From an uncultured archaeon (lineage in GTDB: Archaea > Thermoproteota > Bathyarchaeia > Bathyarchaeales > Bathycorpusculaceae), in contig CAWALK010000016.1 of the NCBI GenBank assembly GCA_963782915.1, positions 1-12,498 on the forward strand: 12,498 bases of DNA. Direction: 5' to 3'. The position numbers and the translations under genes are program-made. Below are positions 4,018 to 10,981 of this stretch, piece by piece; the stretch's first letter is position 1; each line of letters opens with the position of its first letter. The notes beneath the pieces are model-generated. The model did no database searches. It worked only from the letters and a program-made list of their open reading frames with translations, and had not been told where the DNA came from.

Positions 4018-4572
4018 ATGTCAAAGAATCCGCAACAAAAAGATGAAGCTCTTGAAGCATTAGACTTTATTGTCAATGTTTTAAAGGAGCACGAAAGAGA
4101 CTTAGACAAACTCATAAATGAGTTGGCTACAGTCACCGAACAGATGGGAGACACAAGCGAATTAAGCGGTAAAGTCGATAAAGTTGAAGAAAAAATCTGT
4201 GGTTTACAGAAAGAAGTTACAAACCTAATCGGTTGCATGTCCAGCGGCCAAAAAGAAACACCTGTAACAGCAGCAAATGCAACATCATCACAAGCACCCG
4301 TTGCGCCAGTTGCAGCTCAGGGTGGTCCATCAGTGATGGTGCGCTGTAAACAGTGGGAAGACTTCCAGAACTACGCCCTTGGCGCTCAAACCGTATCTTT
4401 CAGCTACAAAGAAGAAGAGAAACTCTTTTCTGCTGATGCACTAAAGGGAAACCAAATTATTTCTTATAGTGGACCGCTTCCAAAGTTATCCGCTGTGTTG
4501 AAATCGTTTTTGGCCAAAGAACTCTGTGTTTCGGACCGGAGCATTCTTGAAGGCGCCCTAGCCGTAAGCTAA
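4018..4572 (+). CDS. Hypothetical protein with N-terminal coiled coil, Ala/Pro linker and C-terminal alpha/beta domain
   Basis: 184 aa ORF with heptad pattern (LDFIVNVLKEHERDLDKLINEL...VDKVEEKICGLQKEVTNL); TA-rich promoter-like tract at ~3961-3974. Confidence 0.85.
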   Translation: MSKNPQQKDEALEALDFIVNVLKEHERDLDKLINELATVTEQMGDTSELSGKVDKVEEKICGLQKEVTNLIGCMSSGQKETPVTAANATSSQAPVAPVAAQGGPSVMVRCKQWEDFQNYALGAQTVSFSYKEEEKLFSADALKGNQIISYSGPLPKLSAVLKSFLAKELCVSDRSILEGALAVS

Positions 4573-4578
4573 ACAGGT

Positions 4579-4615
4579 TTTAGCTTAAGGCTAAATCTTT
4601 ATTTCTATTCTTTAT
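4579..4615 (+). terminator. Small hairpin plus T-rich tract after the 4018-4572 gene
   Basis: TTTAGC (4579-4584) pairs with GCTAAA (4590-4595), followed by TCTTTATTTCTATTCTTTATT. Confidence 0.5.
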
Positions 4616-4625
4616 TGTTACTTCA

Positions 4626-4640
4626 TAAAGCTTATATGTA
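4626..4640 (+). promoter_or_regulatory. BRE/TATA-like promoter upstream of the candidate ncRNA
   Basis: AAAG followed by CTTATATG; the TTATAT at 4632-4637 lies ~25 nt upstream of the structure's 5' end at 4662. Confidence 0.45.
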
Positions 4641-4661
4641 TTTTAGAATATCTTAAGTCTT

Positions 4662-4813
4662 GTTAGTGATTGGAGAGACTGGGTAAGGTTGAAGGCAAAC
4701 CACTAGCCAAAATAAACAATTTCCGTTTTCGAAGCCTTCTCCTTTCTCCTCGAACGACGGATGGCTGATGGCCCAACCAATATACTTACACCATCCCTCC
4801 AAACGCCACTAAC
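4662..4813 (+). ncRNA. Candidate novel structured non-coding RNA (interrupted rod)
   Basis: Nested helices: 4662-68/4807-13, 4670-75/4797-4802, 4680-87/4785-93, 4688-91/4774-77, 4694-96/4771-73, 4704-09/4762-67, 4722-26/4757-61, 4728-32/4750-54. 17-nt pyrimidine-rich loop; T-rich tail downstream. Confidence 0.6.
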
Positions 4814-5009
4814 TTTGACCTTTTATCACTTGATATTTGGGTAATGTCTGAACCAAAAAATCGGCTCATACTACAAAGCATTGGTTGTTGTTGAAACAAG
4901 CGGGGTCCACGGCAACAACTTATAAAAACAAGCACTCACCCAACTTTTGATCTACCCGTAAATAACGGAGAGGTTGGCAACTTGAAGCAACGATTGGCAA
5001 AGCCACCGG

Positions 5010-5814
5010 CTATGGCTTTTTAGCTTCAACCTCAAGACGCATCATACCCAAATGTACAACACCTTCTCCATCAGCGGGGCAACGCTTAAGATATCTGCTC
5101 ACGATTTCCTCAACAAAATCGCCACGATGCTCTATAGGTACACGCTCCGTAAAAGGCAGCCAAGTCGTACGCACCCACCCCGCTAAACCTTCTGCACCGG
5201 CAAACTTCATGTCCTTACCAAAAAGCTCCACACGCAACGGCTCTAAACCAGCCTCCTTTAGCAGCACCTTATATTCTTCTGGGGCAAGGAACGCATAAGG
5301 AAACTTGAAATCCTCAAAGTATCTCTGCCATCGGGCCGTATTTAGCAATTCAATCGAAAATATCCAGCACCGACTGAGCATTACCCTTGCCTGCCATCTG
5401 AAAAAGCAATCTACCCTGCACATTCAAGCATCTTCGAACACCCAGCAAAACGCTCTTTTGATCCAATATCCAATGAAGCGCCGCATTAGAGAAGACAACA
5501 TCAAATTCAGAGGTGAAAGTGAGCTTTTTAGCATCTATCAATTGAAAACTCAAATTAGGATACTGCTCCTTTGGGAAACTGTTGGGTGCTAAATTGATCA
5601 TTTGAGGCGAACTATCAATACCCACCACTTTGCCGTTTGGAAGGCTTTTTGCGATTTGGGCAGTGATTTTTCCATCTCCACAGCCAATATCTAAAACAGC
5701 CTCACTGCCACCAAGCTTGAGCTTCGATAGGAGCTCTTGTGCCCATTGAAACTGGTTCTGAGAATTCGAGGCATAATCTTTGGCATCCCAAGTGTAGCTT
5801 TTTGTTAACTGCAT
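5010..5814 (-). pseudogene. Class I SAM-dependent methyltransferase (trans-aconitate methyltransferase-like), split by a single +1 frameshift
   Basis: N-terminal ORF has VLDIGCGDG, GIDSS and FDVVFSNAALHW. Removing one base at 5352/5353 joins ...VLDIFD to ELLNTARWQRYF... and gives a 267-aa protein. Confidence 0.85.
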
Positions 5815-5952
5815 AATTATTCCTCAAGCAATGTTTTTTTACATAAAAGTGCGAAATAAGCCTTGTTATCGTCAATCTGTAGATGTGTTGAACAAATAAC
5901 CATAAATACCCCTTGCTTGCCTGTATATAAATCAACGGAGCACACCAAGGGA

Positions 5953-6372
5953 ATGCATGTTTCCAGAGCGCTACTGAAAAACACTCGCGCATCATTACGC
6001 TTTCACAAGCGATTAATAGTCTTTTTGGTAGCTATGCTTGTCGTCATAGTCGGTCTGGTGGCCCTCAGTAGCGGATTGCCACAGATTCTTACTGCTGGAG
6101 CAGGAGGAACCGCGGATCCTTTGACTACTGGCGATCAAGGCACCGGTAGTAATGATTATGGGTCTTATATTTCTGAGACCTTTACAGAAGCAACCTCTAC
6201 TCCAACACCTTCAACATCAACAACTCCATCCGCAACCCCTCCCGATCCAACCTTTACCCCACTCCAAGACACACCTGAATTCGGCATTGGCGGTGCAGTA
6301 ATCGCATTATTCACCTGCTTCATGGCTTTCACTCTCTTCATGAGAAGAAAGTCAGCCAACAAGCAAGCATAA
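5953..6372 (+). CDS. Small low-complexity surface protein with PEF-CTERM-type sorting signal
   Basis: N-terminal hydrophobic segment, G/T/S/P-rich body, C-terminal 'TPEFGIGGAVIALFTCFMAFTLFMRRK' (PEF + TM + basic tail). The start position is uncertain. Confidence 0.75.
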   Translation: MHVSRALLKNTRASLRFHKRLIVFLVAMLVVIVGLVALSSGLPQILTAGAGGTADPLTTGDQGTGSNDYGSYISETFTEATSTPTPSTSTTPSATPPDPTFTPLQDTPEFGIGGAVIALFTCFMAFTLFMRRKSANKQA

Positions 6373-6450
6373 ATAAACCCTTACTTTCCTTAAAAAAATT
6401 TAAATTCCTAAACATTAGAGTTACCGTAAATGCTGGGGAATAAGCAACAC

Positions 6451-7218
6451 ATGGCTAAACGCTCTACAGTTCTATTTATTGCAGTTTTGACTTTGTCGTT
6501 CTTCAGTTTATGCATAAGTCTTCCCCAATGTGCAGGTGCAGCTTCTTCGCTCACTATAGAAGTCAGACACCAATTAAGTGAGGCACCAATCGCCGGAGCA
6601 ACAGTATCAATTTCTGGTCCATCGATTCACTCCGCAGTAACCGGTGCCGATGGAAAAGTAACTTTCACCAACATACCTTCAGGCGACTATAGGGTTGTCA
6701 TTAGCGTATCCACTTATCCAAACACTGCTGCTCAGACTATCACAGTAAACGGCAAAACAACCACAATAGTACTCTTCGCTTATACCAAAGCATACTTTGA
6801 TTATCTACCCCAACATCCTCTAACTAACGATACAATCAGTTTTAACGCCACAAAAAGTTCCAGTTCCGGAAACATAACCAGCTATGACTGGAACTTCGGA
6901 GATGGCGAAACCGGAACGGGCCTATATCCCAATCATCACTATGTAAAATCAGGCAGCTATACCGTTTTGTTGACTGTAACAAGTACAGTTGGTCGAGCAA
7001 CCTACAATCAACTAATCCAAGTCGGTACAGTTAATGAAGATGTACCAATATTTCCTTGGATCCTTCTTCTAATACCGTTTCTGATACCGTTGATATTATT
7101 CCTGCGTAGAAGACGTCACTATGTAATTATTCAGGCACGAGTGCCCCTGCGTCCAACCCATCCTCATTGTCCCGGTGATGGAACTAAATGTGAGGATTGT
7201 AAAATGGCGCCCTGCTAA
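6451..7218 (+). CDS. Membrane-anchored surface protein: carboxypeptidase-regulatory-like domain + PKD domain + TM + Cys-rich cytoplasmic tail
   Basis: Signal peptide; PIAGATVSI...TGADGKVTFTNIPSGDY; PKD motif SYDWNFGDG...PNHHYVKSGSYTVLLTVT; TM helix followed by RRRR; terminal CPGDGTKCEDCKMAPC. Confidence 0.88.
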   Translation: MAKRSTVLFIAVLTLSFFSLCISLPQCAGAASSLTIEVRHQLSEAPIAGATVSISGPSIHSAVTGADGKVTFTNIPSGDYRVVISVSTYPNTAAQTITVNGKTTTIVLFAYTKAYFDYLPQHPLTNDTISFNATKSSSSGNITSYDWNFGDGETGTGLYPNHHYVKSGSYTVLLTVTSTVGRATYNQLIQVGTVNEDVPIFPWILLLIPFLIPLILFLRRRRHYVIIQARVPLRPTHPHCPGDGTKCEDCKMAPC

Positions 7219-7370
7219 GCAACGCAAATTATAGCGCGCTATCAACTCTAAACCGATTTTGAAGGATACTCAAATGTTTATCTGTTGTACGCATGCTTGG
7301 AATTCAATATACCACAAATAATAAATACATAGCAACGTGATAGCAAGCGTTCAATTGATAGGTGAACACT

Positions 7371-8105
7371 ATGTCAGCCAATACTGAGAAAAAATCTAAC
7401 ACTAACCAAACAAGTGCCACGGCAGAAGAAACCGCCAAAGAAATGGCACAAAAAACTTACGGAGACTTCCTAGGCGCATACAAGAGCTTCTCTGAAACCA
7501 CCTCACTTGTTGTACAGCAAGCCGCAAGCATTCTAGAATCAGAAATATCTGCAGGCGTAAAAATTGCACAACAATCCGAGAGCCGTTTCCCACAAGTTGA
7601 AAAGTTCCGCTCTGAGAAACCAGACGAAGTTATGCAAAGATTCCGACGTGACGCACACGAAGTAGTGGACATCTTCATCGATGTAGTCGGTGCAACATTA
7701 AAAGCAGCACCAAACATGAACGATATGAACTTCCTACGTGTCGGCAACGTCACAGTTAAACCAGTACAGGTCCCACAAGAACAACGCCCAGTAATCAAAT
7801 CACCAACACCTGTCAAAGCAGGCGGAATAGCTGAAATCCAAATATCATTTGAAAACAACCGCAACACCGAGACAGAAGAATTCAAACTCTACAGCACAGA
7901 CTTAATCAGCAACAACGGCGAACGATTACCCTCAGGTCTAGTAAAATTCGTTCCGCAAGCGATGAAGATTGCTGCAAACCAAACAATGCAAGTCACTGTA
8001 ATTGTCGCTGTTCCAGAAGAAACAAGCCCCGGCACCTACTCAGGTTTAGTGTTAGCATCAAATATGACTGATCTTCGCTCAGAAATCGTCATAAAAGTCG
8101 AGTGA
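7371..8105 (+). CDS. Hypothetical protein (helical N-terminal half, Ig-like C-terminal domain), probably co-transcribed with the polyprenyl synthase
   Basis: AGGTGA RBS before ATG 7371; C-terminal beta-sandwich pattern ending VAVPEETSPGTYSGLV; 25 nt gap to the next ATG. Confidence 0.82.
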   Translation: MSANTEKKSNTNQTSATAEETAKEMAQKTYGDFLGAYKSFSETTSLVVQQAASILESEISAGVKIAQQSESRFPQVEKFRSEKPDEVMQRFRRDAHEVVDIFIDVVGATLKAAPNMNDMNFLRVGNVTVKPVQVPQEQRPVIKSPTPVKAGGIAEIQISFENNRNTETEEFKLYSTDLISNNGERLPSGLVKFVPQAMKIAANQTMQVTVIVAVPEETSPGTYSGLVLASNMTDLRSEIVIKVE

Positions 8106-8130
8106 GTAAAACCGTAAAAATGTGCTCGCA

Positions 8131-9171
8131 ATGCAGGGAACTAAGTTAAAGCTTGTAGAGGAACAGTTAGAGTACTACAAGAAACTTACCCTGGAAACAT
8201 TGCAGCCTTATTTTCGTTCTAATAAAGAACCCCGCAAATACCTCTATGACCTTGTCCCCGTTTATCCTAATCGTGGCGGTAAAGGATTAAGACCCGCTTT
8301 ATGCATTGCGACTTGTCGGGCTTTCGGCGGAAGTACCCATAGTGCATTAAAGTCTGCGGCGGCGCTTGAGTTATTCCATAACACGTTTTTAATTCATGAT
8401 GACATTGAAGATGGCAGCGACTTCAGGCGTGGCTTGCCAACAATTCATTCAGTTATAGGCGTACCTTTAGCGATTAATCTGGCTGATGCCATGAGCGCAT
8501 TGAGCATGTATCCGTTGGTTGAGAACCGCGATACACTCGGCGGATTCATAGCACAGGATGTAATGGCTGAAATCTTGCATATGGTAACTGAAACAGCGGA
8601 AGGTCAAGCACTCGAGTTAGGCTGGATGAAAGATAACATCGTTGACCTCACCGATGCAGATTACTTCCGAATGACCCTCAAAAAAACCGCTTGGTACACA
8701 TGCATCCATCCAGTCCGCATCGGCGCCCTCATCGGCACAGGTGGTTCACTTGCGCTGGACCGATTCAACCAGTTTGCCTATTTTATGGGTGTAGCCTTCC
8801 AAATCCAAGATGACATACTCAACTTAGTGGCAGAGTATTCTAAGTATGGCAAAGAAATCGGCGGAGACATCTGGGAAGGCAAACGAACCATGATACTCAT
8901 ACACCTGCTTAACAATTGTGATCCACTTGAGAAATCGAAGATAACCACTTTTCTCTCCATACCGAGAGAAAAACGGGATATGGAAGAGGTCCGCTGGATT
9001 TACAGTTTAATGGAGAAGTATGATTGTATAGATTACGCTCGTGCAGCAGCGCGCCAACTAGCAAATGAGTCGCTAAAAGAGTTTGATGTAGCTTATGCCA
9101 CTGCAACAAGTAGCGCTGATAAGGAATTTGTTAGGGATATTGTTCATTATATGATTGAGAGGGATCTTTAG
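8131..9171 (+). CDS. Polyprenyl diphosphate synthase (trans-isoprenyl diphosphate synthase, GGPPS-like)
   Basis: GGKGLRP, first Asp-rich motif (FARM) LIHDDIED followed by RRG, EGQALE, KKTA, second Asp-rich motif FQIQDDILN, GK..GGDIWEGKRT. An alternative GTG start is at 8122. Confidence 0.95.
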   Translation: MQGTKLKLVEEQLEYYKKLTLETLQPYFRSNKEPRKYLYDLVPVYPNRGGKGLRPALCIATCRAFGGSTHSALKSAAALELFHNTFLIHDDIEDGSDFRRGLPTIHSVIGVPLAINLADAMSALSMYPLVENRDTLGGFIAQDVMAEILHMVTETAEGQALELGWMKDNIVDLTDADYFRMTLKKTAWYTCIHPVRIGALIGTGGSLALDRFNQFAYFMGVAFQIQDDILNLVAEYSKYGKEIGGDIWEGKRTMILIHLLNNCDPLEKSKITTFLSIPREKRDMEEVRWIYSLMEKYDCIDYARAAARQLANESLKEFDVAYATATSSADKEFVRDIVHYMIERDL

Positions 9172-9629
9172 GGCATCTTGAATTTGATTACTTTTTGGGT
9201 TTCCTTCTTTAATTGTTCATTGCGTTTTTGGATGTACTCTTCAAGGAGTTTTTTGAAGTTGTTGAATTCTTTCTTTTTACCGATTTTTTTTAGGCTAAAA
9301 ATGTGGGTTTCGTAGCCCTGGATGTCATCAATTGGTTTTAGGGGTGACTTTTCAAACCAGACCTTTTGAATGTCTACATCGATTAATGAAACTTTAACCG
9401 CTTCACCTAGTTGTTTGTTGTCTGGTTCTTGTCCTTCCAAAAACAGCAGCCTCTGGGTCGTGAGAACAAGGAGTCCTTCTTTGCGTTCTTTAGCTGTGAT
9501 TCTTTTGCGGTCTTTTTTGCTTTCTTCTAATGTAACGTCGAAGGTGCCGCCTATGATTTCTCGAATGCCCTGCCAGCTATCAACTACTTTTTCGTCTTTT
9601 TTGAGTGCAAGAGCATCGACCCATGTCAT
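9168..9629 (-). CDS. Hypothetical protein with PH-like (bacterial PH / GRAM / GLUE-like) domain
   Basis: LKKDEKVV...KEGLLVLTTQRLLFLE motif and a C-terminal amphipathic helix; overlaps the convergent synthase gene by 4 nt. Confidence 0.78.
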   Translation of the reverse strand: MTWVDALALKKDEKVVDSWQGIREIIGGTFDVTLEESKKDRKRITAKERKEGLLVLTTQRLLFLEGQEPDNKQLGEAVKVSLIDVDIQKVWFEKSPLKPIDDIQGYETHIFSLKKIGKKKEFNNFKKLLEEYIQKRNEQLKKETQKVIKFKMP

Positions 9630-9767
9630 AGTTAATCCTTCAACAGAACAGCGCCCTAAAAATATTTAAGACTTGTCTAAGGCTTCGCTATGTTGTATCA
9701 AAATAGATGCCGCTTGTTACCTAAACGCTTTTTTCTATTATCCACAAATGTTATAGCGGTGAAGTAT

Positions 9768-10538: not shown

Positions 10539-10757
10539 CGCGTTGTTGCTCTCTGGGGCCTATCCCCCCTTATTTATAGGCTCAACACTTGTTGGGTTCA
10601 GGGTTTTGGTTGTGGGCGTTCATTTGTTAGTGGGTATGGGGAAGCTGCGTTTGTTAGGGTAACTGTTGGGTTTATAGGCGGCTGTTTTTGGGCTCTGTTG
10701 GTTTTGGGTGTTTGGGTTCTGTTGCTTTGCCAGCTACCCCCCTCCCCTATATATAGA
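10539..10757 (-). repeat. Bipartite intergenic repeat element, copy B (inverted relative to copy A)
   Basis: Minus strand box1 (10757-10720) TCTATATATAGGGGAGGGGGGTAGCTGGCAAAGCAACA; box2 (10582-10539) AGCCTATAAATAAGGGGGGATAGGCCCCAGAGAGCAACAACGCG. Confidence 0.85.
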
Positions 10758-10981
10758 ATAACAAATGCAGCCTAACCCCATCGAGGTAGCATGCAACCAT
10801 TGAATATGCGCTGTGGAGAAGCAACGCTTGTTGAGGTTGGCTTGCTCTAAATGTACGTTTGCAGTGGGTGTGTCTGCAACTCTGCAAAGCTCCCTGAAAG
10901 TTACGTGACCTCTCTGCAGCTACCGTTCGTCGCTAAGAAGCAAAAAGAATTCAACGTCTCAGTGCCTGTTCACAAAAAGGG

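Follow-up and report, generated by a model that had tools for sequence, protein, structure and literature searches.

A predicted rod-shaped RNA family of Bathyarchaeia with a near-invariant pyrimidine-rich tip

The locus and the predicted fold

The analysed window is the whole of a 12.5-kb contig, C16, from a 3.28-Mb assembly (93.5% complete) of an uncultured archaeon of the class Bathyarchaeia. Two convergent open reading frames (ORFs), at 4018–4572 on the plus strand and at 5010–5423 on the minus strand, leave a gap of 437 bp between them, and the sequence in this gap is predicted to fold into a rod-shaped RNA, a single long hairpin with interruptions (Table 1). The upstream ORF encodes a lineage-specific protein, here called P0001. 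A first-pass annotation, made from the letters of the sequence, had described the rod as one long interrupted stem in a convergent gap, with UUCUCCU occurring twice in the loop and a TTATAT box upstream; the gap, the helices it listed, the bulge, the loop and both copies of the motif were all recovered in our analysis. The source genome holds two copies of the rod, 97% identical, on C16 and on a second contig, C15, in two versions of one locus.

Folding of the plus strand from 4655 to 4825 with RNAfold gave a minimum free energy (MFE) of −50.3 kcal/mol, against −33.65 kcal/mol (standard deviation 3.59) for dinucleotide shuffles. This corresponds to a z-score of −4.64, and 0 of 200 shuffles folded as well. 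The fold contains the helices GUUAGUG/CACUAAC (4662–4668 with 4807–4813), UUGGAG/CUCCAA and UGGGUAAG/CUUAC.ACCA, followed toward the tip by UAGCCA/UGGCUG, UCCGU.../ACGGA and UUCGA/UCGAA, and it includes two G-U pairs, U4704–G4767 and U4727–G4756.

Table 1 Features of the locus, in coordinates of the window
Feature	Position	Strand	Basis or remarks
P0001 gene, 184 aa, lineage-specific	4018–4572	+	ORF directly upstream of the rod RNA
Predicted B recognition element (BRE)/TATA promoter, TTCATAAAGCTTATATG	4624–4638	+	TATA at 4631–4638; TTATAT at 4632–4637
Near-invariant element ATCTTAAGTCTT	4650–4661	+	Between the TATA and the predicted start; palindrome CTTAAG; 120-sequence alignment
Rod-shaped RNA, single long interrupted hairpin, ~152 nt	4662–4813	+	MFE, z-score, covariance model, covariation
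Conserved block GGUUGAAGGC	4687–4696	+	(Nearly) invariant columns; pairs with GCC..AAC at 4771–4780
A-rich one-sided internal loop, 12 nt	4710–4721	+	Fold; in other folded family members a 5′-side loop of variable sequence
Apical module, UCCGUUUUCGA–17-nt loop–UCGAACGACGGA	4722–4760	+	Most conserved part; sole part common to the viral copies
17-nt apical loop AGCCUUCUCCUUUCUCC	4733–4749	+	Near-invariant; UUCUCCU at 4737–4743 and 4744–4750
Conserved 3′ block GCCCAACCAA	4771–4780	+	GCCAACA in most relatives; partner of 4687–4696
Extra segment, 4.9 kb	4817–9713	.	Starts directly 3′ of the rod RNA; absent from the C15 copy

Comparison with known RNA classes was negative. Rfam 15 gave no match at gathering score over the whole window, and at E values up to 10 over 4500–5100 it gave two chance-level matches to long non-coding RNAs (E 6.6 and 7.5), both outside the rod. 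ARAGORN found no transfer RNA (tRNA) or transfer-messenger RNA in the window. Signal recognition particle (SRP) RNA and RNase P RNA were ruled out, the genome having its own at C23:11973–12288 (154.2 bits) and C15:218743–219046 (184.5 bits), respectively. Box C/D RNAs carry a C box (RUGAUGA) near the 5′ end and a D box (CUGA) near the 3′ end, and neither box stands at the ends of the rod in the alignments. The exclusion of tRNA, SRP RNA, RNase P RNA and C/D guides, which the first-pass annotation had made on inspection, is thus borne out.

Three further candidates were rejected. Box H/ACA guides are marked by a two-sided pseudouridylation pocket, an upper stem with a kink-turn or K-loop, and an ACA box 3′ of the lower stem. 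In the rod there is no two-sided pocket, the sole large internal loop being one-sided (12 nt on the 5′ side, 0–3 nt on the 3′ side); the invariant upper stem and loop are without tandem G-A, and the sequence 3′ of the rod is A/C-rich and not conserved. In 6S RNA, the rod is opened at its centre by a large two-sided bubble that imitates an open promoter; the present fold has no such bubble, and the Rfam 6S models gave no match. A miniature inverted-repeat transposable element or other dispersed repeat disagrees with the copy number, the only two copies in the genome being versions of one locus. A literature search on Bathyarchaeota non-coding RNA, with subscription journals outside its scope, found no description of such an RNA.

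Conservation, distribution and strand

Within the genus, BLASTN detected the rod at 77–89% identity in 30 of 36 genomes. A covariance model, R1, was built from 30 close relatives and the MFE structure of the window. Its run over 100 sources yielded 99 full-length plus-strand matches (63–157 bits), one partial match (L049) and, on the opposite strand, two weak matches (24.5 and 25.2 bits); the window's own stretch, 4659–4817, scored 153.4 bits. In the model-fitted alignment of 102 rows, standard pairs fill 80.4% of cells, compared with 66.6% in shuffles and 31–47% when the partners are slid. Compensatory changes on both sides occur in 32 of the 45 pairs, double-change cells number 650 against 245 ± 13.6 in shuffles, and the covariation score is 0.313 against 0.121; none of 500 shuffles reached any of these values. 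These figures come with two caveats: the alignment was fitted to the structure of the model, and its sequences share ancestry. With the 30 seeds aligned plainly by MAFFT, double-change cells number 27 against 15.6 and paired cells reach 74.3% against 35–46% for slid partners, a signal smaller than the model-fitted one and still above both controls. Moreover, 20 diverse members folded singly all gave the same rod, with differing stem sequences.

Within this common shape, the long middle stem and the outer stems are free to vary in sequence while their pairing is kept. The consensus tip of the family reads UCCGUUUUCGA–loop–UCGAnnACGGA, and GGUUGAAGGC is paired with GCCAAC. Helix 9, in the apical module, is paired in 96.6% of cells, and 4 of its 10 pairs never vary; helices 5 and 6, formed by the two conserved blocks of Table 1, are paired in 85–96% of cells. 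Of the 29 relatives found by BLAST and compared at the loop (L009–L037), 28 have the identical AGCCUUCUCCUUUCUCC, L034 being the exception, and so do 11 of 11 model-found loci of other genera; because of the latter, its invariance is not an artefact of pattern searching. Two variants were seen: L034 and L155 have AGCCCUCUCAUAUCUCC, whereas family f7 has, in two genomes, GCUUUCUCCUUUCUCUUUGAU preceded by a mini-hairpin.

The conserved block GGUUGAAGGC has a particular flank in distant members, where 5′ ..CUGA-GGUUG.. faces ..CAAAC-AAU-GA-A... The kink-turn bound by L7Ae consists of a three-nucleotide bulge followed by tandem sheared G-A pairs, and a kink-turn is a possible reading of this CUGA...AAUGA flank, the fit being judged by eye and position 2n often being A. 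The window's genus has UAAG/CUUA in place of CUGA/AAUGA, and the G-A dinucleotides are absent there. As a separate observation, the blocks AAGGUUGAAGGC and GUUUUCGAAGCCUU (window 4685–4696 and 4725–4738) are able to pair with each other instead of forming the rod, a possible alternative conformation. All variation in this pairing consists of A or G facing U, or C or U facing G. RNAalifold on plain MAFFT alignments returned this pairing, for which no covariation is possible, and not the rod, because MAFFT fails to align the variable stems.

An exact 25-mer of the tip occurs in at least 118 stretches of a collection of species-representative genomes. Among the 80 matches listed, nearly all are labelled as metagenome-assembled genomes of Bathyarchaeia or Bathyarchaeota; two are labelled Acidoferrum and two 'uncultured archaeon'. 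When R1 was run with strict filters over 151 genomes of the class, the rod was found in 14 of the 15 genomes of the window's family, f1 (10 genera), in the single genome of f2 and, weakly, in one of four genomes of f6. R1 did not find it in any other sampled family of this survey; it missed the divergent copies of f7, and its reach is therefore limited. The range of the rod is one family of Bathyarchaeia and a few neighbouring lineages.

In 86 of the 99 members, a TATA-like hexamer begins 45–20 nt upstream of the point where the model starts, and its positions peak sharply at −30 to −21; on the opposite side, such a hexamer is found in 7 of 99 members, with no peak. The TTATAT box pointed out at first pass therefore belongs to a motif whose position is fixed throughout the family, and it is predicted to act as the promoter of the rod. 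From the TATA of the window, the RNA start would fall near G4662. Between the two lies the near-invariant element ATCTTAAGTCTT, possibly an operator or a promoter-proximal signal. The bases that flank ATCTTAAGTCTT covary in some distant members like a small hairpin or operator (GUAUC..GAUGC, AUCUC..GAGAU).

In the paired cells of the alignment, G-U pairs number 310 against 159 for A-C (99 rows, leaving aside the partial match and the two on the reverse strand). In addition, at all six loci with viral copies of the tip, described below, the ORFs on both sides are oriented like the CU-rich strand. The plus strand was chosen because of the fixed TATA, the G-U excess and the direction of the viral ORFs; folding energy is not decisive. 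The G-U pairs of the window's rod had been taken at first pass to favour this strand, a view with which folding energy disagrees: the minus strand of the rod folds better than the plus strand (−63.4 kcal/mol, z −5.34), and across the family the mean is −51.1 for the plus and −53.1 for the minus strand, the latter being more stable in 63 of 99 members. This tells against the choice made here, as does the fact that transcription, the RNA ends and the strand are predictions from sequence. The T-rich tail cited for the same purpose does exist, as a T-run at 4820–4824, but it is weak, and no more than 14 of 99 members have a run of at least five T within 60 nt 3′ of the rod. Processing may therefore generate the 3′ end in many cases, or the transcript may run on.

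The checks suggested with the first-pass annotation, namely a folding z-score against dinucleotide shuffles, a covariance-model scan of Rfam and a search for relatives with compensatory changes, thus came out in favour of its proposal of a stand-alone archaeal small RNA of no known family, which conservation, covariation and the fixed TATA support well. We regard it as very probable that the rod is a genuine, conserved gene of soil Bathyarchaeia for a structured RNA whose family is undescribed. In soils and sediments, Bathyarchaeia rank among the most abundant archaea, and they are almost uncultured; to our knowledge, very few of their non-coding RNAs have been described. The comparative support for the rod is on a par with that of many Rfam families, and the family is ready for use in RNA annotation even without a function.

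Viral copies of the tip and the linked protein P0001

An exact 22-mer of the loop was found in six IMG/VR viral contigs. These copies have the tip alone in common with the host rod: their flanks are unrelated and self-complementary and form a different hairpin stem each time. All six hairpins lie in intergenic gaps between co-directional ORFs, and the eight ORFs that flank two of the copies had no match in Pfam or PHROGs. Some host genomes (L047, L060, L106, L188 and L192) also carry rods of a second type, with the same tip, a GAGGUUGAAA..GCCAACAAACAAUGA module and different outer stems. Because the tip alone recurs on unrelated viral stems and on these second-type rods, the tip is the functional unit and the rod is its carrier. 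The invariant pyrimidine-rich tip, found also in viruses, is probably a recognition signal.

On the host side, the rod has a protein gene as its usual neighbour: in 73 of 80 loci, the gene immediately upstream, on the same strand, encodes a P0001 homologue, and 70 of these 73 genes end 120–160 nt before the tip motif. P0001 belongs to no Pfam or NCBIfam family, and in a protein atlas it matches only unnamed Bathyarchaeota clusters. Full-length homologues occur also in f6 and f7, and in genus g7 of f7 the divergent RNA follows the P0001 homologue.

An AlphaFold model of P0001 (AF2, 27-sequence alignment; mean predicted local distance difference test score 79.5) consists of a helical hairpin or coiled coil (residues 5–75), a disordered linker and a small C-terminal alpha/beta domain (106–180). 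Among 48,161 PDB representatives, the C-terminal domain is matched best by 9e6q_Ae (Z 7.1, root-mean-square deviation 2.8 Å, 65/66 residues, 20% identity), followed by 8esq_k (Z 6.7), 9ndp_k (Z 6.5) and 7old_Lk (Z 6.4). Chains 9e6q_Ae and 9ndp_k were confirmed as eL38; 8esq_k and 7old_Lk we take to be eL38 as well, from the convention for naming ribosome chains. Foldseek gave SRP9/14 Alu-binding chains at probability 0.9–0.97 and E 0.06–0.2, and no match to the PDB at E ≤ 0.001. A Z of about 7 lies in the range that the structure-search tool calls common, and hhalign found no sequence relation between the P0001 family and the genome's own eL38. For these reasons, what the modelled domain has is a fold resemblance to small RNA-binding proteins, not membership of eL38.

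The resemblance invites comparison with the Alu-domain ribonucleoprotein (RNP) of SRP and with eL38 on 28S/23S rRNA. The modelled C-terminal domain has the same small alpha/beta fold, and here too a module of this RNA-binding type accompanies a rod-like RNA. Unlike these systems, the present one shows no sequence similarity, and eL38 as well as a normal SRP RNA are encoded at other places in the genome; the rod, moreover, is without the Alu-like two-loop 5′ domain of SRP, and binding by P0001 is conjectured from a structural model. A candidate protein partner of unknown family, together with a tip that viruses have copied, suggests that a host factor worth fighting over is involved.

Possible modes of action

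We propose, with a probability of roughly 40%, that the rod is an undescribed RNA of about 150 nt with its own promoter, acting in trans through its loop and probably as an RNP with P0001. Transcription, a protein partner, action by base pairing and a target are what we infer in this proposal, which builds on the demonstrated fold, conservation and covariation, fixed promoter motif, gene linkage and viral copies. Both functional suggestions of the first-pass annotation, pairing with ribosome-binding sites and a protein decoy or scaffold, have thereby gained candidates (the rpoA′ site and P0001, respectively), and the former has also met contrary findings; the linked protein, the viral copies and a small ORF downstream of the rod in about half of the family had not been noticed at first pass. 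The rod would be transcribed from its own TATA promoter, and its stems would serve mainly to present the near-invariant apical hairpin with the 17-nt CU-rich loop. The loop would then pair in trans with purine-rich RNA of the Shine-Dalgarno (SD) type, the best candidate target being the junction of rpoB and rpoA′, where the loop would lie over the ribosome-binding site of the gene for RNA polymerase A′. The RNA probably works together with the upstream-encoded P0001, with its predicted coiled coil and eL38-like fold, and viruses with the same tip presumably use or titrate the same partner. Rod and P0001 form a defined RNA–protein pair that is testable in vitro without culturing the organism.

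The candidate target was identified by complementarity. SD-like pentamers peak at −15 to −11 before 169 of 1634 long ORFs of the source genome, and over all start regions the loop pairs at −6.94 compared with −6.26 in internal windows, a slight gain only. A perfect 14-nt complement of the loop, AAAGGAGAAGGCUU, lies 7–20 nt before the ATG of the Rpb1-type (RNA polymerase A′) gene, in the last codons of the Rpb2-type gene directly upstream, and the rpoA′ start region ranks 2 of 1634, at −21.4 kcal/mol. The duplex of tip and rpoB–rpoA′ junction reaches −14.9 to −24.3 kcal/mol in 11 genomes of the RNA-bearing family f1. For f6 and genus g16 of f7 (11 genomes together), lineages in which the RNA mostly went undetected, the range is −11.8 to −16.8. 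Genus g7 of f7 has U in place of C at position 3 of the loop and A in place of G at the facing junction base; its own tip pairs with its own junction at −20.9, slightly better than the −18 of the f1 tip.

Several findings weigh against the target and the partner named here. A value of about −21 kcal/mol is reachable by chance, as control windows gave −20.6 and another start region −21.8. The rpoA′ site consists of the last rpoB codons and an SD sequence, which are conserved for their own reasons, and the contrast between lineages in junction pairing amounts to about one or two events (codon changes) among kin. Two genomes with the variant loop AGCCCUCUCAUAUCUCC keep the junction unchanged; because the loop changed and the junction did not, the duplex falls to −13.3 from −23.9. 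The RNA-bearing family f2 is inconsistent at the junction, with −12.8, −24.7 and −16.6. As for the partner, it is linkage and fold resemblance that point to P0001, and the linkage is not seen throughout: f6 and f7 genus g16 have a P0001 homologue with no detectable RNA downstream, the second-type host rods have no P0001 gene nearby, and no P0001 homologue was found within 1.5 kb of the viral copies. Overall, the rpoA′ ribosome-binding site is an improbable target of the loop. It would be a consequential one, since a rod that masks the rpoA′ SD would determine how much of the largest RNA polymerase subunit is made and would represent a rare archaeal RNA controlling the core transcription machinery. 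The fuller scheme, in which the tip would be a host/virus signal controlling RNA polymerase synthesis, the rod, held by an eL38-like protein, would mask the rpoA′ SD and viruses would hijack or shut down this control, is a long shot.

An RNA acting in trans on ribosome-binding sites would have precedents in archaea. Methanosarcina mazei sRNA41 and sRNA154 are trans-acting small RNAs that mask ribosome-binding sites (PMC5867862, citing Buddeweg et al. 2017 for sRNA41). As far as they are characterised in that account, they resemble the rod in being intergenic, with their own promoter motif and a stable stem-loop with an anti-ribosome-binding-site loop, and in a proposed action on sites inside polycistronic mRNA, the rpoB–rpoA′ junction being such an internal site. 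Measured against the same account, the rod differs in having no sequence or Rfam relation to them, in being one 150-nt rod with a single invariant loop, and in its tight linkage to a protein gene and the copying of its tip in viruses; its target is a computational candidate with findings against it, and its transcript is predicted.

Bacterial RNAs offer a second comparison. The 'Cuckoo' (CcsR)/sibling RNAs and those of the RsaE/RoxS type carry C-rich anti-SD loops, are about 60–110 nt long, have several hairpins or several copies and are partly Hfq-linked. The likeness lies in an invariant pyrimidine-rich motif on a hairpin, repeated in the rod's loop as two UUCUCCU copies, and in the resemblance of that loop to the 3′ end of 16S rRNA (CACCUCCU in the source genome). 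Unlike these RNAs, the rod is archaeal, mostly single-copy per genome, long and accompanied by virus-borne copies. Viral mimicry of host regulatory RNAs is known from phage pseudo-ToxI RNA and from RNA anti-CRISPRs (CRISPR, clustered regularly interspaced short palindromic repeats) derived from repeat-like hairpins. Here, too, viruses carry the functional part of a host-encoded small RNA. The host locus, in contrast, is near-universal and syntenic in its family and not patchy like defence systems, and it has no tandem repeats and no endoribonuclease gene; with regard to CRISPR-repeat mimicry, a k-mer test found no CRISPR array in the source genome.

The strongest alternative dispenses with a base-pairing target. 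The rod may be a scaffold or decoy whose loop and closing stem bind a host protein, P0001 or another; the rod would store, titrate or localise this protein, and the viral hairpins would be decoys or recruitment sites. A loop that is identical across genera while every stem covaries is typical of a protein recognition site, and the linkage to P0001 in 73 of 80 loci, its eL38/SRP9-14-like modelled fold and the reuse of the tip on unrelated stems in six viral contigs all fit such a role, as does the fact that the base-pairing candidates examined are all weak or contradicted. However, the rod offers one hairpin per RNA, unlike known sponges with their many sites, and binding by P0001 is a supposition drawn from a model whose fold match is middling and which has no sequence relation to eL38; P0001 also occurs without detectable RNA in f6 and f7 genus g16. 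We consider this explanation possible, if somewhat unlikely.

A cis-acting role was considered as well. Downstream sequence was long enough at 79 loci, and in 43 of these a conserved ORF of 45–48 aa starts about 10–50 nt after the RNA on the same strand (loci including L041, L053 and L067), with the consensus ..NERFLQKIREEFxKFEKTMEELxFLKLVAQDLKSFRKMIKLKKYD, ending in KKYD; in one locus examined it is followed by cysS. The rod could then be a structured 5′ untranslated leader that controls the 48-aa ORF and, in many genomes, cysS, and the scarcity of T-runs downstream (14 of 99 members) would suit a transcript that continues. However, the small ORF is missing from 36 of 79 loci, including all loci of the window's type, and has no homologue in the source genome (best E 0.33). 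The next gene in the window is convergent, so the rod cannot be a leader there, yet the RNA is conserved in full, as is its promoter. Pairing of the loop with the start region of the small ORF (−8.7) hardly exceeds that of controls (−7.6 for shuffles, −7.0 for random windows), a marginal result, and the other downstream neighbours differ between lineages. A leader function is accordingly distinctly unlikely for the family; the preferred reading remains the trans-acting RNA.

The same 3′ flank bears on the idea that the conserved entity is DNA. C16:796–4816 aligns to C15:42596–46645 at 96.6% and C16:9714–12484 to C15:46658–49437 at 97.4%, and the 4.9-kb segment between them encodes a methyltransferase, a PKD-domain protein, a polyprenyl synthetase and unknowns. 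The two versions of the locus are probably, and most simply, two strains in one bin. Because of this block and of the varying downstream genes in relatives, the 3′ flank of the rod is a place of gene-content turnover. If host and mobile elements shared a site of recombination or attachment, or a hairpin of single-stranded DNA (an origin, for example), this could account for a strain-specific segment that begins at the 3′ end of the RNA, for varying downstream gene content, for the 22-mer shared with viral contigs and for two strands that fold equally well. Comparison of the junction sequences, however, revealed no direct repeat at the borders of the segment, and an attachment site of an integrative element was rejected, as there is no core repeat at 9713 and no integrase family in the window (Pfam hits) or in the two scanned viral loci. 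Further, the viral copies sit on stems of their own and not on host-like arms, the extra host copies are complete rods and not half sites, and the one-sided TATA at fixed distance together with the G-U excess points to a transcribed RNA. A DNA-level element is thus very unlikely.

Equally hard to credit is an rRNA guide or chaperone whose loop would pair with 16S rRNA at about 1134–1149 (GGAGGAAGGAGCGGGC, C20:381577–381592) during ribosome assembly: the duplex of 15 bp with one mismatch is strong (−25.9 kcal/mol, with 2 of 200 shuffled loops matching 16S as well) and the C-to-U changes of the f7 loop would keep it through G-U pairs, but two rRNAs were tried, a pyrimidine loop facing a purine-rich segment is not rare, 150 of 200 shuffled loops do as well against 23S, the 16S site is universally conserved and hence allows no covariation, the changes C10A and U12A in L034/L155 would break two pairs (as worked out by hand), and the rod has no box C/D or H/ACA features.

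Other repeated sequences were noted in the window. Just 3′ of the rod, an element at 4844–4955 (core 4881–4931) recurs on at least 13 other contigs at about 77–95% identity. It forms a GC-rich hairpin, GTTGTTG...CAACAAC, and a TTTTTATAAG box can be read on its minus strand. A repeat family is one possibility, a small-RNA or promoter cassette another. Two multi-copy repeats, at 837–1066 and 10540–10890, have dozens of partial matches on most contigs, and parts of them, 852–893 and 10720–10761, are inverted copies of each other inside the window.

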